Part shown: positions 1 through 17,938 of the stretch, piece after piece | Position numbering within the stretch: position 1 is the first letter of the stretch | Layout: each line of letters opens with the position of its first letter | DNA from: Candidatus Bathyarchaeia archaeon | Lineage (GTDB): Archaea; Thermoproteota; Bathyarchaeia; Bathyarchaeales; Bathycorpusculaceae | Length of the DNA stretch: 50,184 nucleotides | Assembly (NCBI GenBank): GCA_049515895.1 | Contig: JBEKTQ010000026.1 | Coordinates: 1 to 50,184 of the forward strand | Reading direction: 5' to 3' | The notes under the pieces: generated by a model | Database searches by the model: none | The model's input: only the letters and a program-made list of their open reading frames with translations | What the model was told of the DNA's origin: nothing | Program-made: the position numbers and the translations under genes

Positions 1-746
1 CTCAAAAGTCCCTTCTGCTGCCTCATCTGATTCGCAGGATAAGGAATCACAGCCTTCACGCCAGAGTTGGACGCTTGCTCTCTCTGGCCTCGGCATGAAT
101 ACTGAGAGTCAGCGACCAAAAGTTTCATTCTCTTATTCGTCGACCTCAAAGCCTTCTCAAAAAGTGTCGGAGCATGCTTCTTCTCATTGTCATTCGCTGG
201 AGCAGCTACGACAGCTAATGGTAACTCAGACTTTGCATCAATAGCCACGTGCAGCTTGTAGCCAAGCTCATACGTCTTACCGTTTCTTCCCACTCTTGCC
301 TGCGGATCTGAAGCTCCTTTACTGTTATCATGAGGGTCTCGCCTGCTGTAGGCCTTAACGAACGTAGCGTCCAAAACCACGGTCTCACCGCTTATCAATC
401 CAGAATTCAAAAGTTTCCGAATCAGCTTGTTCATTATTTTTTGCAGCCTTCTCGGTCCGATGCGCCTTTTGAACCTTGATAGCTGTGATGGATGATACGG
501 ATTCTGGTCTGCCTCGAGGTCGCAGAGCTCACGCAGGTTCTCGTCTTTCCACAGTCGCCTGCAGAGTTCCCTCTCGCTTGGGATCTGCTGAAAACGCTTA
601 ACCATTAAGGCTTTGAATATGCCCATGGGTTTTCTCGGCGGCCTGCCTGGACTGCCCTCTTTGTGGTAAGCTTCCTTCACGACTTTTTCTATGTCGTCTA
701 GGTTCAGTTTGGACAGGATGGTGCATGAAAAGGTGGGTTCTTCCAT
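1..746 (-). mobile_element. DDE transposase (IS5/IS1182-like), 3' end runs off the window
   Basis: Not in the ORF track; translated by hand from ATG at 746: MEEPTFSCTIL...GRPPRKPMGIFKAL...VVLDATFVKAY...GYKLHVAID...LVADSQYS...VIPYPANQ. Contains the DAT, GYKLH and AD.gY motifs of DDE_Tnp_1-type enzymes. Confidence 0.9.
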
Positions 747-797
747 CTGTCACCCTGAATGGTCAACTCAAACAAACTTAAACACGAATATGTTAAT

Positions 798-826
798 CTC
801 AATGTTTTAGCAACAAACTGGCGCGC
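798..826 (-). repeat. Probable left terminal repeat of the IS (GCGCGCCAGTTTGTTGCTAAAA)
   Basis: Lies 80 bp upstream of the transposase start and resembles the GCGCGC-nnnnTGTtCC ends at 4759, 14886, 45870, 46034 and 49129. Confidence 0.55.
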
Positions 827-1015
827 ACAAAATCTCGTTCAACTCTTGATTAGCAACCACCTTTCTCTCATTCTAGGTCTTCATTTCCTGACTCAAATTT
901 TTGGTTTGTTAGTACATTTCCAATACTCAAATCAAAAGATTCAAGTCCATTTCAAAAAGTGCTTGTTTCATTACGGAAAAAGTATTATGTTTGAACAACT
1001 GATTGAGAACTAACA

Positions 1016-1465
1016 GTGAAAAGAATGTCAAACAAGCCATGGCGACTATCTGTCAGAGTTTTGATTCAAGACGATGAAGGACGATTCCTCATGATGAAGC
1101 GCTCCAACCGTTCAAAAAGCAACATTGGCAGGTGGGAGCCACCAGGCGGCAAAATCGACGCTGGCGAAAGCTTCGACGAAGCTCTAGTTAGAGAGGTCGC
1201 CGAAGAAACAGGTTTAACCATTTCCATTAAGAGTGTGGCTGGTGCGGTAAGCTGGGAAATGACTAAACTGAGGATTATCCAACTGATAATGGAAGGTTCT
1301 GTGGAGTCAGGTCAACTGCATCTCAGTAATGAACACAACGCTTACTCTTGGGTTAGACCTGAAGAGTTTTCAACCTTGGAGTTGGCAGATTGGTTTGAAT
1401 CCTTCGCGATGGAAATGGCAAGAAAAGCCTCCAAAGTTAATATGGTAAAAAATCCCAGCAAATGA
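1016..1465 (+). CDS. NUDIX hydrolase
   Basis: Complete Nudix box G-KIDAG-E-SFDEALV-REVAEETG. The stop codon abuts the GTG of the next gene. Confidence 0.92.
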   Translation: MKRMSNKPWRLSVRVLIQDDEGRFLMMKRSNRSKSNIGRWEPPGGKIDAGESFDEALVREVAEETGLTISIKSVAGAVSWEMTKLRIIQLIMEGSVESGQLHLSNEHNAYSWVRPEEFSTLELADWFESFAMEMARKASKVNMVKNPSK

Positions 1466-4400
1466 GTGAAGAATGAGGACCGCGTAATGACCGAATCTGT
1501 TAAGAAAATCTCAAACAAAATGTTAAACACTGAGGTTGCATTGTACGCACAGCTTTTTCCGCGTTACAAGCTTTACGCTGAAACTCTCTCAAAGGTGCTT
1601 GAGCAAGCTGTAAAGAAATATGCCCCCCAAGCTATGGTGCAAGCTCGGCCCAAAGCTATACCTAGTTTCGCGGAGAAGATCTTGCGAAAAAACATATACA
1701 CGGATCCTGTTAACGAGATGACTGATCTTTGTGGTGCAAGAGTAATAACGCACAGTCCCGAAGAAGTCAAATCGGTTTGTGAGTTTTTGGAGAAAAACTT
1801 TGTAATCGATTGGGACAACAGCGTAGACGTCAGCCAACGACTTAAACCTACAGAGTTTGGATACCGCTCCGTTCATTACATTGTGCAGTTTAAAGACGGC
1901 ATCTTTCCAAACAAGGAAGTGTCGGTTGAGGTGCCACAAGAGGTATTCGGTTTAAAAGCTGAAGTGCAGGTTAGAACCTTGCTGGAGCATTCTTGGGCTG
2001 ATTTCAGCCACGACTTGAGCTACAAAGGCACATTCAAAATCCCAGCAAAATGGGAGCACGAACTCGCAGGCTTGGCAGCTTCGCTCGAATCCGCAGATAG
2101 CACTTTTTCGAGAATTCGTTCGGGTCTTCAACTCTACGCAAGCAATTATGGCGCTTACATGTCTGAGCAACAAATTCGGGATGAGATAAATCTGCAGAAA
2201 CTGGTCTTGGAATATGACCCTGAAAATGTTGAAACAGCGCATCGCATTGGAAAATTGTGGTTAGAGTTGGGCGAATGGCAAAACGCCATTGATATTCTCT
2301 CAAAACATAAAGAATCAGACTACTTGCCATTATTAAGAGATCTTGGCGTTGCCTTGTGCAAGAAAAATAAGGATTACAGACAAAGCTTCGAATACACCGA
2401 AGGACAGAATTATCTGAAGACTGCTAGTGCTCCTCCAAGCAAAGACGTTGATGCTCTAACTTCCCTAGCAGCTACGTACAAAGAGATTGATGAAGACAAG
2501 GTGAGAGAGCTCCACCGCCAAGCATTCATGATTGATCCAACTAACCCCTACGTTTTGGGCAATTACTTGGAATCTGAACTAGTTCACAGACGGGATATTT
2601 CTATTCTATCCTTAATGGGTCCATTGATTGAAGCAGCCATTAGGCGCAGTTCAGACCAAGTCGAAGTCGGCATAAACATGCCCTGGGCGTATTACGACAT
2701 CGGCAAGTTTTACTTGCTCATGAACAAGCCTTATGAGAGTCTGGAAGCTTATGCCAAAGCTATCCAGATTAGTTTGCACGAATGGTTCTTGGATGCAGCT
2801 CTAAAATCCATCGAAAGACTTGCTTCGGTTCAAGACCAATTTCTAGGGTTTGAATGGGCGAAACGATTACTCCTGATCGGATTAGCTGCTAAATTCCCAC
2901 AGGCTGACTCAGGAAAGGCTGCTTTTGCGCAACTGAAGAAACAATCCCCAGCAGACCACAAACCAATCGCAGCGCCAGTGGTCATAGTAGCAGGCGGATG
3001 CAACTCCGAAGATGGAGCCAGAACCCAAGAATACGGTGAGCTGATCTTGGACGCTTTCCAAGACTTTGAAGGCACAATAATTTCCGGGGGAACTATATCG
3101 GGGGTTAGTGGGTTTGTAGGAGAATCACAACAGAAATATCCAAAGACAGTGAAGACGATGGGCTATCTTCCAAAGTCAGTCGAAATCAACATTGTGGACA
3201 AGCGTTATTCCGAAATTCGATTTACGGATGGCAACACTTTCAGTCCAATGGAGGGTCTTCAGTGCTGGACAGACATTCTTGTTTCGGGTATAAGCCCTTC
3301 TGACATCAAATTGTTAGGTCTAAATGGTGGAAAGATAGCAGCCGTCGAATATCGAATTGCAATAGCTCTGGGCGCTAAAGTTGCGATCGTTCAAGGGAGC
3401 GGAATGGAAGCAGCAAGATTAATTGCCGACAAAACTTGGAATACCTCATCGAATCTGGTATTATTACCTAACGATTCGTCAACGGTCTGGGCTTTTGTTC
3501 AATTTGGAACAAAGGCGTTTGACGCAGAAATTCGAGAAATTCTAGGTAAGGCCATTCATGAGAATTACATTACCATCGCAGCAAAAAAGAAGGACCAGGA
3601 CCCATCACAATTGTCCTGGTCCCACCTTCCAGAGTATCTCAAGGAATCAAATTGTCAACAAGCTGACCACATAACGGAGAAGCTTACCCGCATATCGTGT
3701 ATAGTCCACAAGGTGAAAAACCGGGAAGTTGCTCCGGTTAGGTTCACCAAAAGCGAGATAGAAGTTATGGCTGAAATGGAACATGGCCGATGGAACGTTG
3801 AAAGGCTTCTTGATGGTTGGAAAAAAGGTGCTCCAAAAGATATAGCTAGGAAGATTAGCCCGTACATAGTTCCCTGGTCTGAACTGCCCGAAGACATAAA
3901 AGAATATGACAGGGAAACCGTCAAGAAGATTCCGGAGTTCCTGGCGAATGTTTCACTTGAAATCGGGGTCTGCGGTAGAATTAGCAGCGGAAATGCTGAC
4001 CTCGACCGCCTCCTCTTGGGTGGGATACCTGAAGAATATGCAGTATTATTAACTTCACCCTCAAGCGATGAAAGAGAACTCTTGATCAACCGTTTCCTCG
4101 AAGCAGGAATTGATGCTGGAGAGACAACCATATTCATCACCGACAAAACTGTTAACGCGAACGCCTTAGTCCGACGTTCTTTTCCGAACTTCTATCTTCT
4201 CGTTTCAAACTCCAAAACTGAGGCGACCGACTGGAGTTTATCTCATTTGTTCAAATTCGAGGGAATAGACAATCTAACGGATATTGAAATATCTCTAACC
4301 AAGCTTCTCCGAACAATAAACTTCTCAAAGGCGGGTTCGAAGCGAGCTTGCGTCGATCTAATATCAGATGTGTTACTGCAGCACCACCCTATAATAACCA

Positions 4401-4648
4401 AAAAGTGGTTGAACAGTCTTCTGTCTACCTTGAAGTCAAAAGGTTTCACAACACTTGCAATTCTTGATCCCCAAATGCACACGCCAGAAGAGGTAGAGGC
4501 AGTCGCAAGCGTATTTGACGGCGAAATCAAACTCTACGAAAGAGAAAGCGCAAAAGGTCCAGAGAAAGTTCTGAAGATCCGAAAGCTCTACAACCAAAAA
4601 TATCTTGAAGAAGAATCTGTTTTGAGCCGAGAAAACCTCGAACGTTAG
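1466..4648 (+). CDS. Multidomain protein: RelA/SpoT synthetase domain + TPR + SLOG (LSDAT-like) + RyR repeats + degenerate KaiC/RAD55-like domain
   Basis: RPK..SF.EK, DLCGARV, GYRSVHY, EVQVRT..EH.WA..SHD..YK (synthetase); helical TPR-like middle; IISGGT.SGV, NGG.IA..EY.IA, VQGSG.EA (SLOG); AIHENY, EHGRW..ERL.DGW, PYIVPWSELPE..KEYDR (RyR); RISSG..DLDRLL.GGIPE with a non-canonical Walker A (KaiC-like). Confidence 0.85.
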   Translation: MKNEDRVMTESVKKISNKMLNTEVALYAQLFPRYKLYAETLSKVLEQAVKKYAPQAMVQARPKAIPSFAEKILRKNIYTDPVNEMTDLCGARVITHSPEEVKSVCEFLEKNFVIDWDNSVDVSQRLKPTEFGYRSVHYIVQFKDGIFPNKEVSVEVPQEVFGLKAEVQVRTLLEHSWADFSHDLSYKGTFKIPAKWEHELAGLAASLESADSTFSRIRSGLQLYASNYGAYMSEQQIRDEINLQKLVLEYDPENVETAHRIGKLWLELGEWQNAIDILSKHKESDYLPLLRDLGVALCKKNKDYRQSFEYTEGQNYLKTASAPPSKDVDALTSLAATYKEIDEDKVRELHRQAFMIDPTNPYVLGNYLESELVHRRDISILSLMGPLIEAAIRRSSDQVEVGINMPWAYYDIGKFYLLMNKPYESLEAYAKAIQISLHEWFLDAALKSIERLASVQDQFLGFEWAKRLLLIGLAAKFPQADSGKAAFAQLKKQSPADHKPIAAPVVIVAGGCNSEDGARTQEYGELILDAFQDFEGTIISGGTISGVSGFVGESQQKYPKTVKTMGYLPKSVEINIVDKRYSEIRFTDGNTFSPMEGLQCWTDILVSGISPSDIKLLGLNGGKIAAVEYRIAIALGAKVAIVQGSGMEAARLIADKTWNTSSNLVLLPNDSSTVWAFVQFGTKAFDAEIREILGKAIHENYITIAAKKKDQDPSQLSWSHLPEYLKESNCQQADHITEKLTRISCIVHKVKNREVAPVRFTKSEIEVMAEMEHGRWNVERLLDGWKKGAPKDIARKISPYIVPWSELPEDIKEYDRETVKKIPEFLANVSLEIGVCGRISSGNADLDRLLLGGIPEEYAVLLTSPSSDERELLINRFLEAGIDAGETTIFITDKTVNANALVRRSFPNFYLLVSNSKTEATDWSLSHLFKFEGIDNLTDIEISLTKLLRTINFSKAGSKRACVDLISDVLLQHHPIITKKWLNSLLSTLKSKGFTTLAILDPQMHTPEEVEAVASVFDGEIKLYERESAKGPEKVLKIRKLYNQKYLEEESVLSRENLER

Positions 4649-4758
4649 CCATAGAGCAAGAGTTGCCATAAGGGCATACCTGCAAGAAAAAAAGTTTTCA
4701 GCTTAAAAACGTGCCTGAAGAGAACTAGACAAATAGGCAATTTTAATCTCTATTAGAT

Positions 4759-5240
4759 GCGCGCTGGCTTGTCCCTTTAATTGGTGTAAAGTGGTTAAAA
4801 GTCTTATTTTTTAGTTTGGGGACAGATTTGAGGCACGTAATCCTTCCCTGTTTCTTTGCAGTAGCCACCCTTCTCAAACATGCAAACGTACGTAAGCCGA
4901 CTGAACTGCAAGGTCACAAACGCTTCATACGGGTTTTCAAGTGCAGCCTACACCTGCTTAGAGGCTGCAGACGGAACGCGGTAGGTGAATTTAGGTCTTC
5001 CAAGAGTGTTTGAAGCCATCTTCTCCTTAACAAAGAGGCCTCAACCTGTTAACCTTTGAAGATGTCGTTGCAGAGTGTTATGGGTAAAGCCTACTTCGCC
5101 CAGAAGCTCAGAGAAGCCTCCGGGTTTCCCGTCTTTAAGCGCGGCCAAAATGCGTTCCTCAAAGAAGCCCATCACAGGCTTAAACAAGCAACAACGAACT
5201 TACAACCATTTTTAACCATTTATTTAACTCCCCTGCGCGC
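4759..5240. mobile_element. Non-autonomous element with GCGCGC-ended imperfect inverted repeats, carrying a wHTH pseudogene
   Basis: Left end GCGCGC...TGGTGTAAAGTGGTTAAAAGT; right end (reverse complement) GCGCGC...TGGTTAAAAATGGTTGTAAGT. Confidence 0.7.
4804..5172 (-). pseudogene. Winged-helix (ArsR-like) regulator with Cys-rich tail and two in-frame stops
   Basis: Hand translation: MGFFEERILAALKDGKPGGFSELLGEVGFTHNTLQRHLQRLTG*GLFVKEK...GRPKFTY...QV*AALE...CMFEKGGYCKE...ICPQTKK. TGA at 5041-5043, TAG at 4948-4950. Confidence 0.75.
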
Positions 5241-5284
5241 TTGCAACCTATAGAATTGTAATTTATTGTAATTTGTCGTTTAGT

Positions 5285-8200
5285 CTAAATCAAGCGGTCA
5301 CTTTTATCGGTTAGTAACAATTGGATAGTGTCCGCGAGTTCTTGAAAGTGTTTCTCTACCGGGGGTGTCATGGCATCAAGCCAGTGCTTGGCGGATAGCA
5401 AATATTCCATTCCTTCCGTTGGCTCCACGTTTTCAATTCGAAAAGGTATTATTGGAATTCCTTTACGCACGGCTTTTTCGACTTCTCGCATGACTTGACC
5501 AGACTTGTTCGATTCAGTAGAAAAAACCAAAACCAAAATACGACTGTTATTAAGCGCATGTGCCAGTGCCGCTGGATAATCCGCACCTGCTGGTATGTTG
5601 CGCGGCGCTATCCAGCATGGAATTTTTCGACTTTCCAAAGTAGAACACAAAGCGTCGGCTACATTCTTGTCACGGTTTGAATAGGATATAAACACATCAA
5701 AAGGTGTTTCTTGAGGTTTTTCTGCAACGTTTCCAATGGCAGAGGCATCGCCTTTTTGCGCGAGTGCATTTCTTAGTTGTGTTGGTGTGGGTGCTTTTGG
5801 TGGTCTATTCCAAAACTTCTTGTAAACAATTAGTGCGACTACTATTGCCACAGGAATCATAAACAGAAAAAGGTACCCGAATGGAAAACCAGCATTAGAT
5901 TTTGCATTTAATTTTGGTGTTGGCGTAACTATTGGTGTTGGTGTTGGCGTAACTATTGGTGTTGGTGTTGGCGTAACTATTGGTGTTGGTGTTGGCGTAA
6001 CTATTGGTGTTGGTGTTGGCGTAACTATTGGTGTTACAGTAGATTGAGCCGAAGTTGTGCCAAAACTGTCAGTAACTGTTGCAGTAATTGAGTAGGAACC
6101 TGCAGAAGCAGGAGAATAACTAAACGTTGACGCAGTTGCGCCTGACTGAGCAGCCCCACCCACATACCACTGATAACCCGTATAAGAACCTGAACCCCCG
6201 CTAGGAGTAGCAGTAAACAGTTGAGATTGACCAGGAGAGACAGAAACAGTTGGCGCACCATTCACCATAACCGAAATAGCTGTAGATGTAACGACAACCG
6301 GGGTACTGGCGCTGTCAGTTACTTGAAGCTCAAAACTCCACGATCCAGCAGTCGTAGATCCAGTTGTAACAAAAGAATAACCAGAGGAGGTTGCACCCGA
6401 AATAGAAGAGAAACTACCAGCACCGGGAGCCTTCTGAAGCCACTGATAAGTGTAAGGAGAAGTGCCAGTTGTAACCGTCGTCGAACTCAAAGTTGAAGTT
6501 TGACCCTGATCAATTGTAGCTAAAGAAGCAGATGCTGTCGGAACAACAAGAGCAGAATTCACCGTGACCGTTGTAGCAATAGATTGAGTTGAAGTCAAGC
6601 CTAAACTGTCAGTAACAGTCGCAGTAATCGAATAAGAACCAGCAGATGTTGGAGAATAACTAAACGTTGACGCAGTTGCGCCTGACTGAGCAGCCCCACC
6701 CACATACCACTGATAACCCGTATAAGAACCTGAACCCCCGCTAGGAGTAGCAGTAAACAGTTGAGATTGACCTAAACCGTTAGGCGTAAAAGCAATACCA
6801 AGCGGCTCATTTCCAACGGTTACTGTTGCGTTAACCGTATTCGTAGCCGTACTTACAACCGACACTGTACCGCTGCCATAATTCGTAACATAAGCGTATA
6901 AACCGTTAGGCGTAACAGCCACACCATCAGGATTGTTACCAACGGTTATTGCTGCTGTCACCGTATTCGTAGCCGTACTTACAACCGAAACCGAACTGCC
7001 TTGATTGGTAATATAGGCGTATAAGCCATTAGGCGTTACAGCTACACCGTAAGGACTGCTGAAACCGGTTAAGGTAGCCGTAACCGTATTTGTAGCCGTA
7101 CTTATAATTGAAACCGTACCGTCTCCTCGATTTATAACGTAGACGTATGCCCCGTTAGGTGTTATGGCTACACCAACAGGTCCATTTCCAACGGTTATCG
7201 TTGCGGTAACAGAATTCGTGGCTGTACTTATTACCGAAACAGTAGTGCCGCCGGCATTTGTAACATAAGCGTATAAACCGTTAGGCGTAACAGCCACAAA
7301 CTCAGGATTGCCTCCAACGGGTATCGTTGACGTAACCATATTCGTAGCTGTACTTATAACTGAAACCGTGCCGTCACCCCAATTTGTAACATAGGCATAA
7401 GCGCCGTTAGGTGTTATGGCTACACCAACAGGTCCATTTCCAACGGTTATCGTTGCGGTAACAGAATTCGTAGCCGTACTTACAACCGAAACCGAACCAC
7501 CTCCTTCATTTACAACATAGGCATAAGCGCCGTTAGGTGTTACAGCTACACCCCAAGGACTGCTGCCTGCAGGAGCCGTTGCAATAACCGTATTCGTAGC
7601 CGTACTTACAACCGACACTGTACCGCTGCCATAATTCGTAACATAAGCGTATAAACCGTTAGGCGTAACAGCCACACATGAAGGCTTGCTTCCTACGGAC
7701 ACGGTTGCAGTAACCGTATTCGTAGTCGTACTTACAACAGAGACCGAACTGCTGGCGTAATTTGCAACGTAGGTGAACAAGCCGTTAGGAGTTAATGCCA
7801 CACCTCCAGGATAGGTTCCAACGGTCACATTCGTCAAAATAGTATTGGTAGCCGTACTTATCACTGAAATCGTAGTGTCGCCGTCATTGGTGACATAAGC
7901 GTATAAGCCGTTAGGCGTAAAAGCCACACCATATGGATTATTTAAACCGGTTATCGTCGACGTAACTGTGTTCGTGGCTGTACTTATTACCGAAATAGTA
8001 GTGCCGCCGGCATTTGCAACATAAGCATAAGCACCGTTAGGTGTTATAGCCACACCAACAGGAGTGTTTCCAACGGTTACTGTTGCAGTAACCGTATTCG
8101 TAGCCGTGCTTATCACTGAAACCGAACCACTACCAAAATTCGTGACATAGGCGTACAAACCGTTAGGCGTAACAGCCACACCAACAGGAAAGGCTCCAAC

Positions 8201-8560
8201 GGTTACATTCGAGATAACCGTATTCGTAGCTGTGCTTATCACTGAAACCGAACCACTACCAAAATTCGTGACATAGGCGTACAAACCGTCAGGCGTAACA
8301 GCCACACCAAATGGATTATTTAAACCGCTTATCCTCGACGTAACCGTGTTCGTAGCCGTGCTTATCACTGAAACAGTAGTACCGCCCTCATTTGCAACAT
8401 AAGCATAAGCACCGTTAGGTGTTATAGCCACACACTCAGGTTCACTTCCTACGGTAATCGTCGACGTAACCGTATTCGTACCTCGAACCGTGTTGGTTAC
8501 CGACAATACAATAATCACGGCGAATACCAAACCTAAGAGCTTCCAAACCTTAGCTTTCAT
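5285..8560 (-). CDS. Single-pass membrane protein: signal peptide, ~14 YVTN-type beta-propeller blades, Ig/PKD-like repeats, Pro-Thr linker, TM helix, C-terminal TIR domain
   Basis: ATG at 8560 gives a signal peptide (MKAKVWKLLGLVFAVIIVLSV); 14 TP[N/D]G repeats; TM segment FPFGYLFLFMIPVAIVVALIVY followed by KK; TIR motifs DVFISYS..D and S.QV.REVE.A. Confidence 0.9.
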   Translation of the reverse strand: MKAKVWKLLGLVFAVIIVLSVTNTVRGTNTVTSTITVGSEPECVAITPNGAYAYVANEGGTTVSVISTATNTVTSRISGLNNPFGVAVTPDGLYAYVTNFGSGSVSVISTATNTVISNVTVGAFPVGVAVTPNGLYAYVTNFGSGSVSVISTATNTVTATVTVGNTPVGVAITPNGAYAYVANAGGTTISVISTATNTVTSTITGLNNPYGVAFTPNGLYAYVTNDGDTTISVISTATNTILTNVTVGTYPGGVALTPNGLFTYVANYASSSVSVVSTTTNTVTATVSVGSKPSCVAVTPNGLYAYVTNYGSGTVSVVSTATNTVIATAPAGSSPWGVAVTPNGAYAYVVNEGGGSVSVVSTATNSVTATITVGNGPVGVAITPNGAYAYVTNWGDGTVSVISTATNMVTSTIPVGGNPEFVAVTPNGLYAYVTNAGGTTVSVISTATNSVTATITVGNGPVGVAITPNGAYVYVINRGDGTVSIISTATNTVTATLTGFSSPYGVAVTPNGLYAYITNQGSSVSVVSTATNTVTAAITVGNNPDGVAVTPNGLYAYVTNYGSGTVSVVSTATNTVNATVTVGNEPLGIAFTPNGLGQSQLFTATPSGGSGSYTGYQWYVGGAAQSGATASTFSYSPTSAGSYSITATVTDSLGLTSTQSIATTVTVNSALVVPTASASLATIDQGQTSTLSSTTVTTGTSPYTYQWLQKAPGAGSFSSISGATSSGYSFVTTGSTTAGSWSFELQVTDSASTPVVVTSTAISVMVNGAPTVSVSPGQSQLFTATPSGGSGSYTGYQWYVGGAAQSGATASTFSYSPASAGSYSITATVTDSFGTTSAQSTVTPIVTPTPTPIVTPTPTPIVTPTPTPIVTPTPTPIVTPTPKLNAKSNAGFPFGYLFLFMIPVAIVVALIVYKKFWNRPPKAPTPTQLRNALAQKGDASAIGNVAEKPQETPFDVFISYSNRDKNVADALCSTLESRKIPCWIAPRNIPAGADYPAALAHALNNSRILVLVFSTESNKSGQVMREVEKAVRKGIPIIPFRIENVEPTEGMEYLLSAKHWLDAMTPPVEKHFQELADTIQLLLTDKSDRLI
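5916..6035. repeat. 5 x 24-bp perfect tandem repeat encoding the Pro-Thr linker
   Basis: GGTGTTGGCGTAACTATTGGTGTT repeated five times. Confidence 0.95.
6111..6772. repeat. Identical 122-bp direct repeat (6111-6232 and 6651-6772) in the Ig-like domains
   Basis: Base-by-base identity read from the sequence; the copies are 540 bp apart. Confidence 0.9.
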
Positions 8561-9203
8561 AAACAATACCCAACCTTTACTTCGCGCGTGGAATAAACTG
8601 GGAACAGGAATAACACGAGTAAAGCGGAGACGAAAATTGCCTCTGTTTTCATCTTTCTCGCCAGAAGGTACACTATATGCAAAGCCTCTGCTTGCCTTTA
8701 GCTTTTTCCATTTCCAGTTTTTCAGCGTGCACCAAGTTTTTCTGAACTGCCAAAACGTCATCCTTACTAATTGCAAATTTTAAAGCCATTAACTATAGCG
8801 CGATGGTATGGGAAGTGTTTTACGTGAGAGGCGCTCACGCCATGTTAGCGCGCGCGCAAATCAAACTGCCAAAAACATATAAGTCATATTCCAAAAACGT
8901 AACATATCAAAACACTTTATGCCACCATTTCTTTTTCTTCAAAAAGCAGATTTAAAATTTATCATCAATTAAAACTTGGCTAAAATACTACGAGTGATAC
9001 AAAACGTTATGTTTTCTAATCTCTCCAGCAACAATCAGACTTTTTTATTTCAGTTTCTTGAAGTTCGCCTCACGGAGATTTAATTCTTGCTAACATGTAG
9101 ATATATATATAAAATAAGCCAGCGTTTTTTGTGTCAACAAACGATGTTTCTTCTTTTTTTTGTTTCCCATAATCTCTCTAAATTTGGTATTTCCATGTTT
9201 AGG

Positions 9204-10920: not shown

Positions 10921-12870
10921 CTATTGACCGTTGTAGTATCTGATTAACGGTGGATGTAATGGGTCATTTGGATTCATCATTCTAACGAACGCATTAAGCT
11001 CAGTTGGAGGCTCTACATAATCTGTTTCAATTATAATGAATTGAGTATCTTGCAATGGACCTTCAGCAAGTCTATAGAGATATTGATAGAACGATTCAAA
11101 TATCTCTAGATTTACTCCCTTGCCTACATTTTTCATCGGCGAATCAATGATTAGGAAATTAGGAAGGGGCAAGTCATTCTCTGCAGCCACTTTATGGATA
11201 GCAAGCGCATAGCAAACAGTTAAGATGGTTTTTTTACCACCGCTGCCAGCATTAAAAAAATCCAAAACGTTTTCCTTCTTTCCATGCTCTAAAATATATG
11301 GAATCCAATTAGCACGGTCGATTTCAACAACGTCATCCTCATAAATCCCTGGCAACTTGATTGCAATAAGAGCTTCAAGATAGCTTCTAGCTATTTGCTT
11401 GACCAACTGTTCTGAGGTTTTTAGTGTTTTTTCTTCTTGGTCCACTTCAAGTTTCAGTCGCTCTTCTTCTGAGAAAAGTATTGAGAGATCATCCTCCATT
11501 TTGCTAACTTCTTTGGGTAGTTCAATAGTTTTTTTGAGATTTCTGATCCTTTCTTCTAGAGAGGCGACCTCATGTTCCTTCTCTCTTGTTTCAGCGACAA
11601 AGTTAGAATCGTAAGACCTAAGCGCATCTGCAAGTTTTTTGTCAGCTGCATTCTTTTTCTCTCTTAATTCCAAGTATGCCCTTTTTTGCTCTTGCTGAGC
11701 TTTTTTCTGACGTTCAATAGAGTCTTCAAGCTCAAAAATCCTCGAATCTAGATCAAGTTTCAAAGCGTCCTCTTTAACATCTTTACCTTCACTTTCGTTA
11801 GTCGCTTCCTTGCATAATGGGCAAACGCTTTGCCCAGATTGAGCCCTAGTTAAAACCTTGTTACCACAGGCAGGGCATACTTCAAAATGCACGTTTTCGA
11901 ATACGTTTTTTGCCGAAAGAGTACGGACTAACTTGAACTTAGACGCAATAAGCTCCGCCCTCAAGGATTCCTGTTCATTAATCCTTGTTCTGAGGTCAAT
12001 TAAATTTTGTTCGGTATCAGATAATTCCTTTTCTAATCCTCTGAGGAGTTGCCGCTGATCATCAACGAAATGAGTCTCCTTCGCATATCCCTGATGCATT
12101 TGTTGGACTTCCGCGACGGCACTCGATAATTGAAACTCAACTCCCTGTATCTCTTCAAGCAATTGATTCTCAGAGCTATAACCTAATCTTTCCAGAAACA
12201 ATTTGACATTCTCAATTTCGCTCGTTTTCTTTCCTTTTAATTGACGAACCACGTCCAATTGACCCTTGAGTGCTGAAAGCCTATCCGTATATGCTCCCGT
12301 GATGAAATCGAGTATGTAACGGCTATTCCGCAGTTTGTAATCGGTTTTTAGCCAGAAGAATGCTGAATCCATTACGTTTTGCTCTAAGTAGCAATACCAC
12401 ATGAAATTCCGAAAGCTCAGTCTCACTGTCTGCTCCTCGTTGGCAGCCTTGCTTTTTGGTATCCTCAGCGCCTCTTCTCCCGCAAGATAGAAGAGCAAAT
12501 CATTGAGATTTTTTATGTCGTTTTTCCATATAGGAACAGGTGATTCTCCTATCGGTGCAAGCACGCTCCCATATTGACCCTCTCTATTTGTCCAGCTAAC
12601 TTGCACTTGAGAACCATATGCTTGACGTTCAAAGATTGTTTCGTTCTCGCCAATTGTAGCTTTAAGCTCTACTGCAACCATTTCGCTTTTAATTGCGGGG
12701 GTTCTTTCAAGTTCACCACCCAAACAATAGTCAATCAAACGTGCAATCGTGGATTTACCTGACGATAACTTTCCATAGAATAGTGACAGTGTTGAAGAAA
12801 ACTCTATGGTCTCAACGGATTGCTTGCATGTCAATGTAAGAGTTTTAAAACGCACCTTGAACTTGATCAT
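10921..12870 (-). CDS. lmuB: SMC-like ABC ATPase of a Lamassu/ABC-three-component system (LmuB-like)
   Basis: Walker A GKLSSGKST, long coiled coil with central CPAC...CPLC, signature GSGGKK, Walker B LIIDSP; overlaps the upstream gene by 4 bp. Confidence 0.8.
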   Translation of the reverse strand: MIKFKVRFKTLTLTCKQSVETIEFSSTLSLFYGKLSSGKSTIARLIDYCLGGELERTPAIKSEMVAVELKATIGENETIFERQAYGSQVQVSWTNREGQYGSVLAPIGESPVPIWKNDIKNLNDLLFYLAGEEALRIPKSKAANEEQTVRLSFRNFMWYCYLEQNVMDSAFFWLKTDYKLRNSRYILDFITGAYTDRLSALKGQLDVVRQLKGKKTSEIENVKLFLERLGYSSENQLLEEIQGVEFQLSSAVAEVQQMHQGYAKETHFVDDQRQLLRGLEKELSDTEQNLIDLRTRINEQESLRAELIASKFKLVRTLSAKNVFENVHFEVCPACGNKVLTRAQSGQSVCPLCKEATNESEGKDVKEDALKLDLDSRIFELEDSIERQKKAQQEQKRAYLELREKKNAADKKLADALRSYDSNFVAETREKEHEVASLEERIRNLKKTIELPKEVSKMEDDLSILFSEEERLKLEVDQEEKTLKTSEQLVKQIARSYLEALIAIKLPGIYEDDVVEIDRANWIPYILEHGKKENVLDFFNAGSGGKKTILTVCYALAIHKVAAENDLPLPNFLIIDSPMKNVGKGVNLEIFESFYQYLYRLAEGPLQDTQFIIIETDYVEPPTELNAFVRMMNPNDPLHPPLIRYYNGQ

Positions 12871-13415
12871 ATCTTGATTTTCTCCCCGCTCTTTAGTGAG
12901 GTTATCTCTGGAAATGTTTCATAAATAAAAGATCGCAAGTTAGTGCCACTCTCATCAAAAAATCTTTTAAGTATATGGGCCCTGTTGACGGTGATTTCAA
13001 ATTCTTCAGAACGAGTTAGTTCATCAGCGACTTGAATGCCTTTGCAAGTCAGCCCTATATAGACGGTTCGTCCCTCTTTCCTAATTTCGCATAAACCCAT
13101 GCCTATTAGCAAGTTTAGAAAAGTATCATAGCGAGGGTCCCAAGGTCCATACTTGTAGCGTATCATTGCAGATTCAACGCTTCTTCGCTCATATTCCAAA
13201 ATTGCAAGATTATCAATTGGTTGATTTCTTTTCATTAGGGCTTGTTCTAAGTAAACAGGATAGCGAAGTAGAAAATCAAGCTTAACGAGTTTTGTTTTTC
13301 CTGCAACTTCGTCGGTTCCATTCTTGCCTGCAAAGGCCCTAAGAAGAACGAGAAGTCTTGCAGTATGTAACTTAGGGTCATCTTCAAGTTTCGCTAATTC
13401 CTTAAAAAGGCTCAT
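12867..13415 (-). CDS. lmuC: Middle component of the ABC-three-component system (LmuC-like)
   Basis: KLVKLDFLLRYP and MIRYKYGPWDPRY motifs; sits between the effector and the ATPase with overlapping ends. Confidence 0.7.
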   Translation of the reverse strand: MSLFKELAKLEDDPKLHTARLLVLLRAFAGKNGTDEVAGKTKLVKLDFLLRYPVYLEQALMKRNQPIDNLAILEYERRSVESAMIRYKYGPWDPRYDTFLNLLIGMGLCEIRKEGRTVYIGLTCKGIQVADELTRSEEFEITVNRAHILKRFFDESGTNLRSFIYETFPEITSLKSGEKIKI

Positions 13416-14658
13416 TCTCTTCCTCCTTTGTTAGATCAAACCGTTCGCTCCACCAAATTTTGCAATCTTCAGTTAAAATGCCAGCAATCCCTAGCAGTTG
13501 TGGATAACTCATTTCATGGTATTGATTCTTGACTTGAGAGTCAAAGGCAATATGCAATTTATCACGCGCTAGCCCTAGCATTCTCTCTCCGTATAGTTCG
13601 TTAGGCTTTTTAGCAGAGTCATGGGCCTCTTGGCATTCATTCCAAACCAAAACCGAAAGATTGTCTGCATGCTTTTCCGCCTCAATTCTTCCACGCTTAT
13701 GAAGCCATTCAATGAATAGATACTGAGCGGACCAATTGTTATTTTTCATAAGGTCAATGTTGGAGTTGTCGATACCGCCTCGTATCATTTTTCGCTCCAA
13801 TATCTTAGTTGCGTTTTGTGTGAGCAGTATGGGCTTTGGCTCAATACTTTTTAAAAGTATTACAGAATCGGCACACTGACTTAAGCGATTCTCAATCATG
13901 GCAGGAGTAATTCTCTTGTTTTCAATTATCGCTTGATTAACAGTAGCTTGCGGATTTTGAAGCATACCGTAGTAGGAAGGCTTGGATAAATCGGTTGAAC
14001 GGCAGGCTGCGGCAGATGTAAGCCCGATTAACTCTTCAGCCATGTTAGACAAAACATACGCAGGCTGAGTTTGACTGTTTGTTATTTTTGATAAGTCATC
14101 AGCAAGGATAGCTTTGTAGTGGTCAAGGTCTGCCCAATCTACTAACCTCACTTTATTGAGCGTTGACAAAGCTTGCTTCTTACTACAATTTGCCAGCCCA
14201 GTCAAAGTTTCGATTTTGCCGGAAAACATATGACCCTTTTTGTCGATTCGAACTTTGCCTCTCTGCAAAAGATCAAGAGCATGACTCAAGTCTGAGCTAT
14301 CCCTGCTTGACGCAAAACCACAATTTGTTGCAAGATGGAAGCTCCCAAAGGATTTAGGAAAGTCACTATCAAGCCGGATGAATTTCTTCAGACTCTGAAG
14401 TATCTCATCGTCGCCGAATCTGAACGGGCCCAGAGACTTTTGTTTAGTTTTGACTTGGACCCCGATAAATTTGCCACTCTTGCATTTTACCAAAACGTCC
14501 TCATACTGCTCACAATAAATGCATTCATAAGGAGAGCTTTCTCCAAGAAGCTGGAGCGCAACATAGGCTGCATATGCCGCTTGATATCGAAAACGGTTCT
14601 GAGTATTATCCCCTGTGTCACTTGTATCTGTCGACTGGTCAGGGGCTTTATTTGACAA
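13402..14658 (-). CDS. lmuA: Cap4/DUF4297-like PD-(D/E)xK nuclease effector with ABC-3C C-terminal domain (LmuA-like)
   Basis: G....RFRYQ, E.YEDV, QVKT nuclease motifs; C-terminal LGIAGILTEDCKIWWS. Confidence 0.8.
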   Translation of the reverse strand: MSNKAPDQSTDTSDTGDNTQNRFRYQAAYAAYVALQLLGESSPYECIYCEQYEDVLVKCKSGKFIGVQVKTKQKSLGPFRFGDDEILQSLKKFIRLDSDFPKSFGSFHLATNCGFASSRDSSDLSHALDLLQRGKVRIDKKGHMFSGKIETLTGLANCSKKQALSTLNKVRLVDWADLDHYKAILADDLSKITNSQTQPAYVLSNMAEELIGLTSAAACRSTDLSKPSYYGMLQNPQATVNQAIIENKRITPAMIENRLSQCADSVILLKSIEPKPILLTQNATKILERKMIRGGIDNSNIDLMKNNNWSAQYLFIEWLHKRGRIEAEKHADNLSVLVWNECQEAHDSAKKPNELYGERMLGLARDKLHIAFDSQVKNQYHEMSYPQLLGIAGILTEDCKIWWSERFDLTKEEENEPF

Positions 14659-17153: not shown

Positions 17154-17367
17154 ATGCGGAAAAGGTGATGAAGCGTTTAAAGGCAGCAGAAAAAAGTTAG
17201 CCCCCGCAGAGAAAAAATTTGTTATCATGGACTTTGACGGCTCCTACTTTGGCGATTGCGGATCAAGCATTTCTCAAGAACAACTTGCCGGCTGGTTGGA
17301 AAAACAAGAGCCGACTGCCGAGATAACAATCATAAAGTACTTGACCGAGGTGCTGTGTGTTGACTGA
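17150..17367 (+). pseudogene. Small viral-type protein, apparently frameshifted at an A6 run
   Basis: TTG at 17150 gives MNAEKVMKRLKAAEKS*; one extra A at 17190-17195 continues into KLAPAEKKFVIMDFDG... Confidence 0.5.
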
Positions 17368-17926
17368 AAACAAAACAACTATAAAAGTCCCTGATGCGTA
17401 CCTGCCTCTCCTAGAAGACTTAAGGCTCCTGAAAAGCGACGATAACAACCCAAACAAAATGACGCTAAAACAGAAAGGACAGGTCTGGAATAGCCTGCAG
17501 AAATACGGGTGGACTTACCCGATCATAACTAACAAGGACGGCATTTTCGCAGATGGGGAACAAAGAGCAAGCGTCTGCATTGAACATGGCGAGTTTTTCG
17601 CTCCCGTTTTGCGTTTGCCAGTTTCTGACGTTGACCGACGGATACTAAGGCAAATCCTCAATAAACTCAAAGGGACGCACAGCAAGGAACTTGACAGCGC
17701 CGAATACCTTCGCATCATAGAAGCCGGGGAAAAAGACTGCCTAAAAGCCCTGCTCGATTCCATTGGTGAAAAGCTGCCGCAGGAAAACGACCAGGTCTCC
17801 GAAGGTCCAACTACTATACCTGACAGCTATGAGCTACTCATAGAATGTAAGGATGAGACTGAACAAAAGCGTTTCTTTGATACGCTAAAGGCTGAAGGCT
17901 ACCATGTCAGGGTGCTGAATCTATAG
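17357..17926 (+). CDS. ParB/Srx-like N-terminal domain protein
   Basis: NPNKM...SLQKYGW..PII.....ADGEQR pattern. Confidence 0.75.
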   Translation: MLTENKTTIKVPDAYLPLLEDLRLLKSDDNNPNKMTLKQKGQVWNSLQKYGWTYPIITNKDGIFADGEQRASVCIEHGEFFAPVLRLPVSDVDRRILRQILNKLKGTHSKELDSAEYLRIIEAGEKDCLKALLDSIGEKLPQENDQVSEGPTTIPDSYELLIECKDETEQKRFFDTLKAEGYHVRVLNL

Positions 17927-17938
17927 GAGGCGTGCCTT

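Follow-up and report, generated by a model that had tools for sequence, protein, structure and literature searches.

The window analysed here is a 50,184-nucleotide stretch of a Candidatus Bathyarchaeia genome (assembly GCA_049515895.1, contig JBEKTQ010000026.1, positions 1 to 50,184). On its minus strand, a reading frame open from 8776 to 5285 holds an ATG at 8560 and encodes an intact protein of 1091 aa, P0001, whose N-terminus, MKAKVWKLLGLVFAVIIVLSVTNTVRG, is of the type found in its paralogues and relatives. A plus-strand gene pair converges on it, the nearer gene ending 636 bp away. The features are as follows:

1016..1465, plus strand: NUDIX hydrolase directly upstream of the probable partner (Pfam E 4.9e-21; PADLOC PDC-S07)
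1466..4648, plus strand: probable partner, 1060 aa, with RelA/SpoT synthetase, TPR, SLOG (LSDAT_prok), RyR module and KaiC-like domain (Pfam, PADLOC)
3503..3970, plus strand: RyR (R12-type) module of the partner, residues 680-835, two half repeats (profile matches)
5285..8560, minus strand: whole TIR receptor gene, 1091 codons and stop, encoding signal peptide, YVTN repeats, three PKD/Ig modules, stalk, predicted transmembrane (TM) helix and TIR
5312..5704, minus strand: TIR_2 domain, residues 953-1083 (Pfam, AF2 model, structural matches, dN/dS)
5705..5821, minus strand: predicted cytoplasmic linker, residues 914-952, not conserved with relatives
5822..5890, minus strand: predicted single TM helix, residues 891-913, then KKFWNRPPK (top hydropathy segment, KD 2.75)
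5906..6016, minus strand: Thr/Pro stalk, residues 849-885, of TPTPIVTP units (TRF repeat)
6017..6772, minus strand: three PKD/Ig-like modules, about residues 597-668, 669-776 and 777-848 (Pfam, motif positions)
6773..8479, minus strand: YVTN beta-propeller repeats, residues 28-596, 13 full 42-aa repeats and a truncated 14th
8480..8560, minus strand: signal peptide, residues 1-27 (MKAK, hydrophobic core, TNTVRG), from the hydropathy scan, with a putative cleavage site

Profile matches, TRF and a hydropathy scan bore out the original prediction, which had read P0001 as a signal peptide, about 14 propeller blades, Ig-like repeats, a stalk, one TM helix and a TIR domain in the cytoplasm. TIGR02276 (the NCBIfam YVTN repeat) matched in 13 stretches (E 5.9e-144; 467.9 bits against a cut-off of 27.85), 14 TPNG/TPDG motifs follow a 42-aa period with the 14th repeat shortened, and TRF found a 126-bp unit in 13.6 copies at 6773-8480. 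Two closed 7-bladed propellers, as had been proposed, are a possible arrangement of these repeats. Pfam PKD matched in two stretches (E 8e-8), with a weak Y_Y_Y match; PKD modules 1 and 3 open with 41 identical residues (at 597 and 777), and an Ig-like module lies between them. The stalk is built of a 24-bp unit in 5.1 copies at 5914-6035, with 100% matches in this assembly, and public short contigs break here. Strongly hydrophobic 19-mers occur at two places only, residues 3-21 and 894-912, and a signal-peptide-type N-terminus is likewise present in the paralogue L091 and in P0112 and P0119. From the Kyte-Doolittle scan, the positive-inside pattern and signal-peptide logic, the TIR domain, within the 178 residues C-terminal of the TM helix, is predicted to lie on the cytoplasmic and not the extracellular side of the membrane, given the signal peptide, the single TM helix and the KK..R..K stretch behind it. 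A PGF-CTERM/archaeosortase sorting signal, sought in residues 851-1091, gave no NCBIfam match at E<=0.01. The Toll-receptor-like layout of repeat ectodomain, TM helix and cytoplasmic TIR, the last by predicted topology, holds for P0001.

Judged by its domains, the chassis of P0001 is that of an ordinary archaeal surface protein. The nearest solved relative of the YVTN ectodomain is PDB 1l0q, a 'surface layer protein' (E 1.3e-67), and the PKD modules have 35 matches elsewhere in the same genome, which holds many paralogues with the same PKD modules, stalk and anchor. One of them, L091 (498 aa), comprises a signal peptide, four PKD-like modules, a stalk and a TM helix with a 16-aa basic tail at the end. 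The nearest YVTN+PKD relatives P0119 and P0187 end like L091, and P0112 has a zinc-ribbon tail; all four share the chassis without a TIR domain. Unlike P0001, these surface-layer-type YVTN-PKD proteins (1l0q; TIGR02276) carry short tails or the zinc ribbon, and a TIR domain was found in none of the 120 best ectodomain relatives listed. The best explanation is that an archaeal surface-protein chassis, with YVTN propellers, PKD modules, a stalk of glycoprotein type and a C-terminal anchor, would have gained a catalytic-type TIR on its cytoplasmic tail.

The TIR domain itself matched Pfam TIR_2 (PF13676) over residues 956-1075 (E 1.9e-20; 74 bits against a cut-off of 28; profile positions 1-121 of 122). 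In the AF2 model (pLDDT 89.1, pTM 0.85), it adopts the flavodoxin-like TIR fold, with the SARM1 TIR as best structural match (Z 17.9, rmsd 1.9 A over 126 residues), followed by SPARTA (Z 17.5), TRR-2 (Z 17.4) and AbTir (Z 15.6); the top Foldseek match was 7uxu_A (E 1.1e-7). A profile search put Hydra Toll-receptor-related 2 (6.5e-8) and TLR6 (2.3e-6) among the solved structures closest to it in sequence. The model places a catalytic-type glutamate, E1026 in MREVEKA (encoded at 5483-5485), in helix 76-88, which follows strand 63-68 and precedes strand 92-96. In alignments, E1026 corresponds to the Glu of Cat1, TIR-STING and TLR6, and Glu is at least 90% conserved at this position among 76 clade sequences; the catalytic role of the conserved TIR Glu is described in passages of PMC7075850. 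Both the sequence and the genes around it favour a TIR of the enzymatic type, which would make a nucleotide signal. The domain is 84% identical to that of P0004 and 81% to that of L003, with unrelated ectodomains, stalks and TM helices, and the similarity to P0004, P0005, L003, P0310 and P0323 begins just a few residues before DVFISYS. Comparison with L003 gave a dN of 0.082, a dS of 1.09 and a dN/dS of 0.076, indicating strong purifying selection on the TIR domain.

The TM-TIR join is real, and the misassembly or dead fusion that the original prediction had named as its possible undoing is not what we found. Contig X1 (record 2) covers 4768-5943 with 0 differences, and contig X2 (record 10), from another study, covers 5584-5943, again with 0 differences; both cross from the TIR over the linker and TM helix to the start of the stalk. 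A metagenome contig, L095, is collinear with positions 1-6233 of the window at 99.6%; it extends from the neighbour across the TIR and reaches into the third PKD module, and it includes the ectodomain-to-stalk junction (5943-6231), which the listed short contigs of the two runs do not. RNA-library contigs cover only 5500-5708 and 8452-8758, are from a slightly different strain and may reflect DNA carry-over. It is hardly credible that the gene is an artefact or in decay, through chimeric assembly across the repeats or as an unmaintained recent fusion. Such a reading could appeal to the 53 contigs of the source assembly, to the long repeats, to public short contigs that stop at 5943 and within the repeats, with odd joints at 6233/7942 and 6259/7617, and to the YVTN+TIR combination, found in no other protein by architecture searches that included the 79 clade loci and the 120 best ectodomain relatives listed. 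However, it has to contend with an intact frame, the bridging in two studies, L095, the low dN/dS and five further close relatives that share the C-terminal layout with other or unassigned ectodomains, one of them named Bathyarchaeia.

The clade that includes the TIR of P0001 has at least 8,618 cluster representatives (E<=1e-30), and a literature search found no paper on it. In 71 of 79 genome loci, the TIR goes together with a membrane helix and an outer domain that varies. The TIR is N-terminal in 76 of the 79, with a strong hydrophobic helix after it in 68 of these, and C-terminal in three, where the helix precedes it in every case; the commonest order is inverted, TIR-TM-ectodomain, with the same predicted topology as P0001. 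Outer domains include WD40, solute-binding proteins (Peripla_BP_6, Bmp, SBP_bac_5), FGE-sulfatase, Sel1, LVIVD, BNR, Kelch, RCC1, C-type lectin and other lectin folds, LRR and SH3. Among the nearest relatives, this TIR is joined to four different recognisable ectodomains, a pattern suggesting that sensor heads have been swapped. Tandem paralogues are found in 24 loci and two-component genes in nine; together with the solute-binding ectodomains, these fit environmental sensing as well as immunity. Few copies were found on viral contigs. Neighbours in 16 loci fall into one BLAST cluster of 16 members, five of which gave a SLATT-type Pfam match, and SLATT-type proteins are cell-killing effectors according to passages of 10.64898/2025.12.03.692087. 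In this prokaryotic TIR_2 clade, which is very large, such a receptor layout is the norm and not peculiar to P0001.

The mirroring of TLR/IL-1R organisation that had been proposed stands as far as the layout goes, but it is not distinctive, and a search for YVTN+TM+TIR proteins recovered TM-TIR pairs with other ectodomains and no second YVTN version. Animal TLR/IL-1R proteins and Hydra TRR share with P0001 the signal peptide, the repeat or Ig-like ectodomain, one TM helix and a predicted cytoplasmic C-terminal TIR. However, TLRs have LRR and IL-1R has Ig ectodomains where P0001 has YVTN and PKD, and no MyD88-like adaptor is present; the context of P0001 suggests enzymatic nucleotide signalling. 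The tree places the P0001 TIR among prokaryotic sequences only, but included no eukaryotic rows and hence is no test of descent. What these data show is a resemblance of architecture, to be kept apart from common descent of the whole receptor and from adaptor-type signalling.

The linked neighbour genes were missing from the original prediction. The NUDIX stop codon abuts the partner start codon with no spacer, and both are PADLOC candidates (partner PDC-S33, E 9.8e-20; NUDIX PDC-S07, E 1.7e-21). The nearest solved relatives of the partner's N-terminal part are RelQ/YjbM (E 1e-12), members of the small alarmone synthetases/toxSAS (RelQ/YjbM, RelP/YwaC); unlike these, it joins its synthetase-like domain to TPR, SLOG and RyR modules and to a KaiC-like domain with no visible Walker A. 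The RyR module matched Pfam PF02026 (E 1.8e-11; 44.5 bits against a cut-off of 27.4; 46 bits in the genome scan) and RyR repeat domains by profile (E 1e-37), is the only RyR domain in its genome and is separated by about 1.3 kb from the TIR gene's end. According to passages of a 2026 preprint, PMC13232231, proteins with the PF02026 domain either cleave 2'cADPR and 3'cADPR or bind them with nanomolar affinity, and the ligand residues of the phage protein RyDEP are H75, W78, H100 and D117. H773, W776, S798 and D815 of the partner stand at the same spacing, the second His being replaced by Ser, in a comparison of motif spacing only and not a direct alignment; in a 23-row RyR alignment, the His is present in 23 rows, an aromatic residue at +3 in 23 and Asp at +42 in 15. 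The RyDEP catalytic dyad (H, D) is retained in full, so the module could destroy the signal rather than sense it. RyDEP is described there as a small viral counter-defence protein, whereas the RyR of the window, also a PF02026 member, sits in a 1060-aa cellular multidomain protein and in relatives the module is part of channel-like and AAA proteins.

A new observation is that the convergent neighbour (NUDIX plus RelA/SpoT-TPR-SLOG-RyR-KaiC-like) is repeatedly found next to TIR genes of this clade. NUDIX and partner genes co-occur in L004, L022, L024, L096-L099, L101-L104 and L114. NUDIX, RelA-SLOG-RyR and TIR genes are adjacent in L024, L101, L104 and, without an RyR match, L004, and lie 6 kb apart in L022; the set recurs in distant phyla. 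The candidate effector and the TIR gene are co-oriented in L024 and L101 and divergent in L104; in the window they are convergent and not co-transcribed, a point against coupling. Across the clade, the RyR module matched in 22 of 79 TIR loci, in 18 of them less than 500 bp from the TIR gene, and Pfam confirmed RyR in 22 of the 27 matching ORFs; partners in the clade include 2TM-RCK-RyR channel-like proteins and a PAS-HisKA-RyR protein. In five other genomes, picked because each had a TIR-RyR locus, all 14 RyR matches fell inside TIR loci, and RyR genes were limited to TIR loci in all six genomes examined, these five included. A reverse scan from the partner found an adjacent TIR in 5 of 19 non-self loci. 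The partner's closest relatives, L096-L100 (77% identity), have no TIR in their 3-7 kb flanks, and L102, L105 and L112/113 have no adjacent TIR; the remaining loci are too short to tell. Coupling of TIR to RyR genes is facultative, with no RyR match in 57 of the 79 loci.

Pfam and PADLOC place the receptor gene inside a defence island, between Lamassu and the two PADLOC candidates and flanked by transposases. Of the 200 family genomes sampled, 199 lack the gene, as would be expected of accessory defence cargo. No second TIR protein is encoded in the window; the genome's second TIR is on a different contig with its own 2-TM neighbour. The anti-phage system Thoeris, a ThsB TIR sensor with a signal-gated effector (types I-XI in passages of 10.64898/2025.12.03.692087), shares with the locus a catalytic-type TIR beside a putative nucleotide-signal sensor, a SLOG domain as ThsA has, the SLATT-type neighbours found in clade relatives and the defence-island location. 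However, those passages apply 'transmembrane' to effectors only and do not present Thoeris TIRs as membrane receptors with outer domains, the main-text passages name no RyR, RelA/SpoT or Nudix component, and the TIR and partner genes of the window are not co-oriented. P0001 falls outside the curated ThsB models, with a weak match to PADLOC ThsB1 (E 5e-4, 17 bits), 23.7 bits for the type III ThcB4 (NCBIfam), far below the cut-off of 220, and a partial match to Pfam ThsB_TIR at 21.2 bits, equal to its cut-off.

We give a probability of about 0.5 to the reading that P0001 is a type-I membrane receptor forming an outward-looking, Thoeris-like TIR signalling module with the neighbour as its partner. 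A multivalent ligand, such as a virus particle, a polymer or the surface of another cell, would be bound outside, clustering the receptors and bringing the TIR domains together. By analogy with other enzymatic TIRs, oligomerisation would then lead to NAD+ cleavage and an ADP-ribose-derived signal, which the RyR and SLOG modules of the neighbour may read or clear; its alarmone-synthetase-like domain could then shut down growth, and the adjacent NUDIX enzyme may reset the system. A wider proposal, possible but doubtful, is that pattern-recognition-type receptors widespread in archaea and bacteria, each with an outer sensor, a single helix and an inner TIR enzyme, emit a cADPR-type messenger on contact with viruses or foreign surfaces, to be read by RyR effectors: 2TM-RCK-RyR channels, AAA-RyR proteins and, here, the alarmone synthetase.

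The receptor might instead act alone, its clustered TIR domains burning NAD+ like SARM1 with no messenger and no partner. The many clade loci without an RyR match, the TIR-free flanks of L096-L100, the convergent gene orientation and SARM1 as best structural match all favour this. We consider it unlikely nonetheless, given the confinement of RyR genes to TIR loci in the genomes examined, the 18 loci with RyR less than 500 bp away, the 16-locus neighbour cluster with its SLATT-type matches and the recurrence of the gene set in distant phyla. Equally improbable, in our judgement, is a general transmembrane signalling role in which environmental or surface cues raise a TIR nucleotide as an ordinary messenger for channels and alarmones. 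The solute-binding, lectin-fold and SH3 ectodomains, the channel-like and PAS-HisKA partners, the tandem paralogues and two-component genes, the great size of the clade and its scarcity on viral contigs would suit such a role; the island setting with flanking transposases, the absence from nearly all sampled family genomes and the cell-killing SLATT-type neighbours (10.64898/2025.12.03.692087, in the passages cited) argue for defence.

That the TIR is non-enzymatic, serving as an adaptor or anchor as in animal TLRs or as a passenger in an adhesin or S-layer component, is very unlikely. The Hydra and TLR6 profile relatives and the surface-layer-type ectodomain speak for it, but the glutamate is conserved across the clade, enzymatic TIRs tie for the top structural matches, the surroundings are nucleotide-centred (NUDIX, SLOG, RyR, SLATT) and no adaptor-like TIR partner lies nearby.

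TIR signalling is familiar from sensors in the cytoplasm, those of Thoeris, plant NLRs and SARM1. A membrane TIR receptor with an outward sensor would add a surface or environmental input route to prokaryotic TIR chemistry, in a clade that is large and little studied. The archaeal example is unusually clean: the same genome encodes TIR-less paralogues of the chassis to which the TIR has been added. The conserved RyR linkage gives a testable cellular role to a domain shown, in passages of PMC13232231, to bind TIR-made cADPR in phages, and provides a simple system in which to ask whether RyR-type domains gate channels or enzymes through cADPR isomers. If the pattern-recognition reading is true, these receptors would provide outside-in innate immunity before an invader's genome enters the cell, and would represent a prokaryotic forerunner of both the Toll-receptor layout and the disputed link between cADPR and the ryanodine receptor in animals.

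The open frame of the receptor gene runs from 8776 to 5285 on the minus strand, and the ATG at 8560 was taken as its start, giving a protein of 1091 residues (P0001) with the following parts:

6773–8480, minus strand: YVTN repeats (TIGR02276, E 5.9e-144, 13 stretches; 13.6 copies of a 126-bp unit by TRF)
Minus strand: three PKD/Ig-like modules, modules 1 and 3 sharing identical first 41 residues
Minus strand: stalk of five perfect 24-bp repeats encoding TPTPIVTP, a copy number as assembled, since short contigs break there
Residues 891–913, minus strand: membrane helix, the sole strongly hydrophobic segment apart from the N-terminus, with KKFWNRPPK directly after it
Minus strand: linker of 39 residues between helix and TIR_2
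C-terminal, minus strand: TIR_2 domain (E 1.9e-20)

The protein begins with a short Lys-rich stretch followed by a hydrophobic core and TNTVRG, and the N-termini of L091, a paralogue without TIR in the same genome, and of the relatives P0112 and P0119 are of the same type, while the 72 codons upstream of the ATG at 8560 show no likeness to any known protein start. P0001 carries 14 TPNG/TPDG motifs at a spacing of 42 residues, the last YVTN repeat being shortened, and the solved structure closest to this part is 1l0q, a 'surface layer protein' (E 1.3e-67). Because a cleavable signal peptide is combined with a single helix that has positive charges behind it, the TIR domain is predicted to lie in the cytoplasm. 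The signal peptide, YVTN repeats, Ig-like repeats, stalk, single membrane helix and C-terminal TIR of the original prediction were borne out by the TIGR02276, PKD and TIR_2 matches, TRF and hydropathy, and its topology, for which the side of the membrane that holds the TIR is decisive, agrees with this predicted placement. The mature ectodomain (6773–8479, minus strand, residues 28–851) is very low in charge (D 1.2%, E 0.8%, K 0.2%, R 0.2%) and abundant in Thr, Val, Ser, Gly and Ala. Sorting of the receptor by a PGF-CTERM/archaeosortase route was considered and dropped, as no sorting-signal model matched.

The join between membrane helix and TIR had been flagged as a possible misassembly or a dead fusion, and the data exclude both. 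At least 81% of the sampled words of the window are present in two peat-metagenome runs from different studies, and contigs of these runs (X1 record 2, 4768–5943; X2 record 10, 5584–5943) span the TIR, the linker, the helix and the first stalk repeats with zero differences to the window. L095, a metagenome contig from an independent assembly, follows window positions 1–6233 collinearly at 99.6%; it covers the neighbour genes and the TIR and reaches the third PKD module. The receptor TIR is 84% identical to that of P0004 and 81% to that of L003, two relatives whose ectodomains, stalks and helices are unrelated to it, and comparison with L003 gave a dN of 0.082 and a dS of 1.09 (ratio 0.076); dS was saturated in comparisons with the loci L004, L101 and L104. 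The bridging contigs, together with this conservation, therefore show that the join is not a misassembly and the fusion is not dead. Short public contigs end at the stalk repeat and within the propeller repeats, as expected, so the repeat copy numbers come from the window assembly alone.

Several further observations concern the DNA flanking the gene. At 4760–4790, four runs show many loose ends and a depth 2–4 times that of the surroundings over about 30 bp, which is a short repeat common to other places or genomes. Directly downstream of the TIR gene, 4804–5187 (minus strand) holds three ORF pieces of 48, 39 and 37 aa in three frames, which look like the pieces of a single small winged-helix regulator disrupted by frameshifts. 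Upstream, in an RNA-library contig whose strain differs slightly, 8586 connects directly to 8688, so that 101 nt just before the start codon are missing; this may be a strain-level deletion. A TTTAAAAT box lies at about 8778–8785. A terminator and promoter scan of 4600–5320 gave nothing above chance, tRNA and Rfam scans of the window found none, and RNA evidence from one metatranscriptome run was too thin for any claim on receptor expression.

The TIR domain resembles TIRs of the enzymatic type. Alignment of 76 clade members showed that DVFISYS, CWIAPRD and HWLDAxTPP are nearly fixed, and that E1026, the Glu of MREVEKA, is conserved in at least 90% of them. In the predicted model (pLDDT 89.1) E1026 sits on the helix linking strands C and D, which is where the NADase Glu of TIRs is located (PMC7075850). 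E1026 aligns with the Glu of Cat1, oyster TIR-STING and TLR6. The model superimposes on the SARM1 TIR with a Z of 17.9 (rmsd 1.9 A, 126 residues), followed by SPARTA TIR-APAZ (Z 17.5), Hydra TRR-2 (Z 17.4) and AbTir (Z 15.6), and the top Foldseek match was AbTir with 3AD.

When each species was represented by one genome, a scan found 111 TIR relatives, from which 79 loci were retained. The TIR is N-terminal in 76 of the 79, and a strong hydrophobic 19-mer follows it in 68 of these 76, at a median of 40 residues past the TIR and with a median of 312 residues beyond the helix; among the eight loci lacking such a helix are fusions with nSTAND2 and with TrmB, a double TIR and an ORF that encodes TIR alone. 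The remaining three (Bathyarchaeia L003, Methanolinea L025 and Methanoperedens L027) have a C-terminal TIR, preceded by a helix in all three. In 78 proteins surveyed beyond the helix (L021 was left out for an internal stop in frame), the outer domains comprised WD40, Peripla_BP_6, Bmp, 3-keto-disaccharide-hydrolase and GH43_C2 lectin folds, FGE-sulfatase, Sel1, TPR, LVIVD, BNR/sortilin, Kelch, RCC1, C-type lectin, LRR_5, DUF5050, SH3_3, PPC and ankyrin. A profile search of 1.84 billion representatives returned 8,618 TIR relatives at E<=1e-30, and in most of the best 150 of these the TIR occupies residues 4–132. Thus, of the YVTN–membrane helix–TIR architecture that the original prediction proposed to search for, the membrane-anchored TIR with an outer domain recurred widely, but its combination with YVTN did not: no other case was found in 101 long TIR-sharing proteins, the 78 locus proteins or the best 120 of 4,302 ectodomain relatives. 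These searches, bounded by a length window, a word index and the best-120 list, show the combination to be rare; absence elsewhere does not follow.

The closest kin of the receptor in a quick tree form a small group of C-terminal-TIR rows, in which the receptor TIR, L003 and P0004 group at an SH-aLRT of 93 and are joined by P0005 and P0012/P0015 at 83. P0012 and P0015 are long proteins in which TIR_2 is the sole Pfam family seen. Five membrane-anchored relatives have the layout of the receptor with other heads:

P0004: NosD/beta-helix head, C-terminal TIR
P0005: NHL propeller and Ig head, C-terminal TIR
P0310: Laminin_G_3 head, C-terminal TIR
P0323 and L003: heads without a Pfam match, C-terminal TIR

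The TBP gene at 33964–34527 shows the host to be an archaeon, probably a member of Bathyarchaeia: of the TIR relatives with named records, the nearest are MAGs of this group, and one ectodomain relative carries the name as well. Among 200 other genomes of the family a TIR was found in one, at 34% identity. Viral contigs yielded 13 TIR-clade loci at no more than 40% identity and two weak RyR-module loci, in a search with few peptide patterns that can miss relatives. The genome itself has 35 matches to the PKD module, and L091 consists of P0001-type modules, stalk and anchor followed by a 16-aa tail. These sequences suggest a picture in which a TIR cassette became attached at the cytoplasmic end of ordinary surface proteins whose heads are exchanged. 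The YVTN-PKD surface protein P0112 carries a zinc-ribbon-like CxxC...CxxC motif at the end of its cytoplasmic tail, so that here too the chassis has gained a small domain behind the anchor.

The first 20 kb of the window form an island of mobile and defence genes; its features, and a TBP gene beyond it, are as follows:

First 20 kb: IS transposase
First 20 kb: NUDIX gene (PADLOC candidate defence model PDC-S07)
1466–4648, plus strand: RelA/SpoT-TPR-SLOG-RyR-KaiC-like protein of 1060 aa (PDC-S33), convergent with the receptor gene
10921–14658, minus strand: complete Lamassu system (LmuB E 8.7e-85; LmuC 1.1e-14; LmuA 1.2e-25)
First 20 kb: transposase fragment
17357–20300, plus strand: ParB-like nuclease-domain protein, split ABC-type ATPase and large terminase (phrog_2, E 9.1e-43)
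33964–34527: TBP gene

The LmuA has a Cap4-type nuclease domain (Pfam 5.3e-23). Two overlapping ORFs, which match both halves of phrog_11143, make up the split ABC-type ATPase. With no further virion genes near 17357–20300, this segment is either what is left of a provirus or an island that bears a terminase. In the 1060-aa neighbour, the RelA part is similar to YjbM/RelQ, which are small alarmone synthetases (E 1e-12). Compared by sequence with solved structures, the SLOG part gave only chance-level matches, and it had an Atlas score of 0.89 to LSDAT_prok clusters, which we take as a lead only. Its C-terminal KaiC-like domain (3972–4648, plus strand; Pfam E 2.2e-12) has LLTSPSSDE at the expected Walker A loop and is therefore probably not an ATPase. 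Elsewhere in the genome (L084, contig C14, 958–1905, minus strand), the only other TIR_2 gene encodes a 159-aa TIR and is followed at once by a gene for a 155-aa protein with hydrophobic segments, apparently a small Thoeris-like pair of TIR and membrane effector.

When the neighbour genes of the window were used as queries on the 79 TIR loci, the RyR part matched 22, and in 18 of these 22 it lies within 500 bp of the TIR gene; Pfam confirmed RyR in 22 of the 27 matched ORFs. Larger parts of the partner set recurred at three loci:

L024 (Anaerolineae): NUDIX and RelA-TPR-SLOG-RyR (56% identity over 810 residues), ending 17 bp before a TIR-TM gene on the shared strand
L004 (Bathyarchaeia): NUDIX and a 687-aa RelA-SLOG homologue without RyR match, 1.2 kb upstream of a TIR-TM-WD40 gene
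L022: NUDIX and RelA-SLOG-RyR-type pair, 6 kb from the TIR

The RyR architectures are TrkA_N...RyR (about 600 aa; two hydrophobic segments near the N-terminus in most, an Ion_trans_2 pore in one), AAA...RyR x2 (about 880 aa), RelA-TPR-SLOG-RyR and PAS-HisKA-RyR. TrkA_N (RCK)-RyR proteins of about 600 aa stand beside TIR-TM genes at L009, L010, L011, L014, L024, L025, L026, L065, L066 and L068, and from their domains may be K+ channels gated by cADPR-type signals. Other neighbours were TIR paralogues in 24 loci (TIR_2 shown in 9 of 11 tested), one BLAST cluster in 16 loci (5 of 16 members matching SLATT_1, SLATT_3 or DUF4231) and two-component genes in 9 loci. The genome of the window has exactly one RyR domain, that of the 1060-aa neighbour, and in five other genomes with TIR-RyR loci all 14 RyR matches fall inside TIR loci; as these five were picked for having such a locus, the point is limited to there being no RyR gene elsewhere in them. 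A reverse scan that started from the neighbour protein found 20 loci in metagenomes, one being the window's own sequence. TIR genes adjoin at L101, L104, L108, L109 and L111, the L104 TIR being 69% identical and divergent, in the order TIR-TM-ectodomain; an adjacent TIR is absent from L096–L100 (one population, 77% identity, 3–7 kb of flank), L102, L105 and L112/113, and the remaining loci are too short to judge. From this mixed result, the link between TIR and neighbour is strong but facultative. Among 200 other genomes of the family the full RelA-SLOG-RyR architecture was found in none, with partial matches in 9.

The RyR modules may bind or cleave a nucleotide signal. For phage proteins with this domain (PF02026), cleavage of 2'cADPR and 3'cADPR or binding with nanomolar affinity has been shown, and the ligand contacts of one of them, RyDEP, conserved in the family, are H75, W78, H100 and D117 (PMC13232231). 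A 23-row alignment of TIR-linked RyR modules has His in 23/23, an aromatic residue at +3 in 23/23, H/N/S/G at +25, and D (15), N (7) or E (1) at +42, and the neighbour has H773, W776, S798 and D815, the correspondence being one of spacing, as the alignment holds no RyDEP sequence. The RyR R12 domain is reported to bind ADP or AMP-PCP (PMC13642953, PMC12627627).

Taken together, the best-supported explanation is that an outward-looking TIR receptor would feed an NAD-derived signal to effectors bearing RyR or SLOG domains. The effector in the window would be the alarmone-synthetase-like neighbour, and the NUDIX enzyme would reset the system. The receptor would be switched on by clustering, given its single-helix design and the oligomerisation that TIR enzymes are reported to need (PMC10899771). 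Four other explanations have to be weighed against it. A sensor that stands alone and depletes NAD+ would fit the SARM1-like fold and the reverse-scan loci with no adjacent TIR; set beside the RyR genes within 500 bp of the TIR gene in 18 loci, it is unlikely. We regard a general signalling receptor with no immune role as similarly improbable: two-component genes beside the TIR in some loci speak for it, the island of mobile and defence genes around the receptor itself against it. That the TIR is a non-enzymatic adaptor, as its alignment with TLR6 might bring to mind, is very improbable alongside the conservation of E1026, and an artefact, for all the repeats at which contigs break, is hardly credible next to the bridged join.

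Our literature search, with preprint supplements outside it, found no paper on membrane-tethered TIR receptors of prokaryotes or on TIR-RyR gene linkage. To the receptor-to-effector explanation, the window contributes an archaeal, C-terminal-TIR, YVTN-PKD form of such a receptor, a partner set of RelA/SpoT-SLOG-RyR and NUDIX genes, and a clear origin of the receptor from chassis plus cassette.
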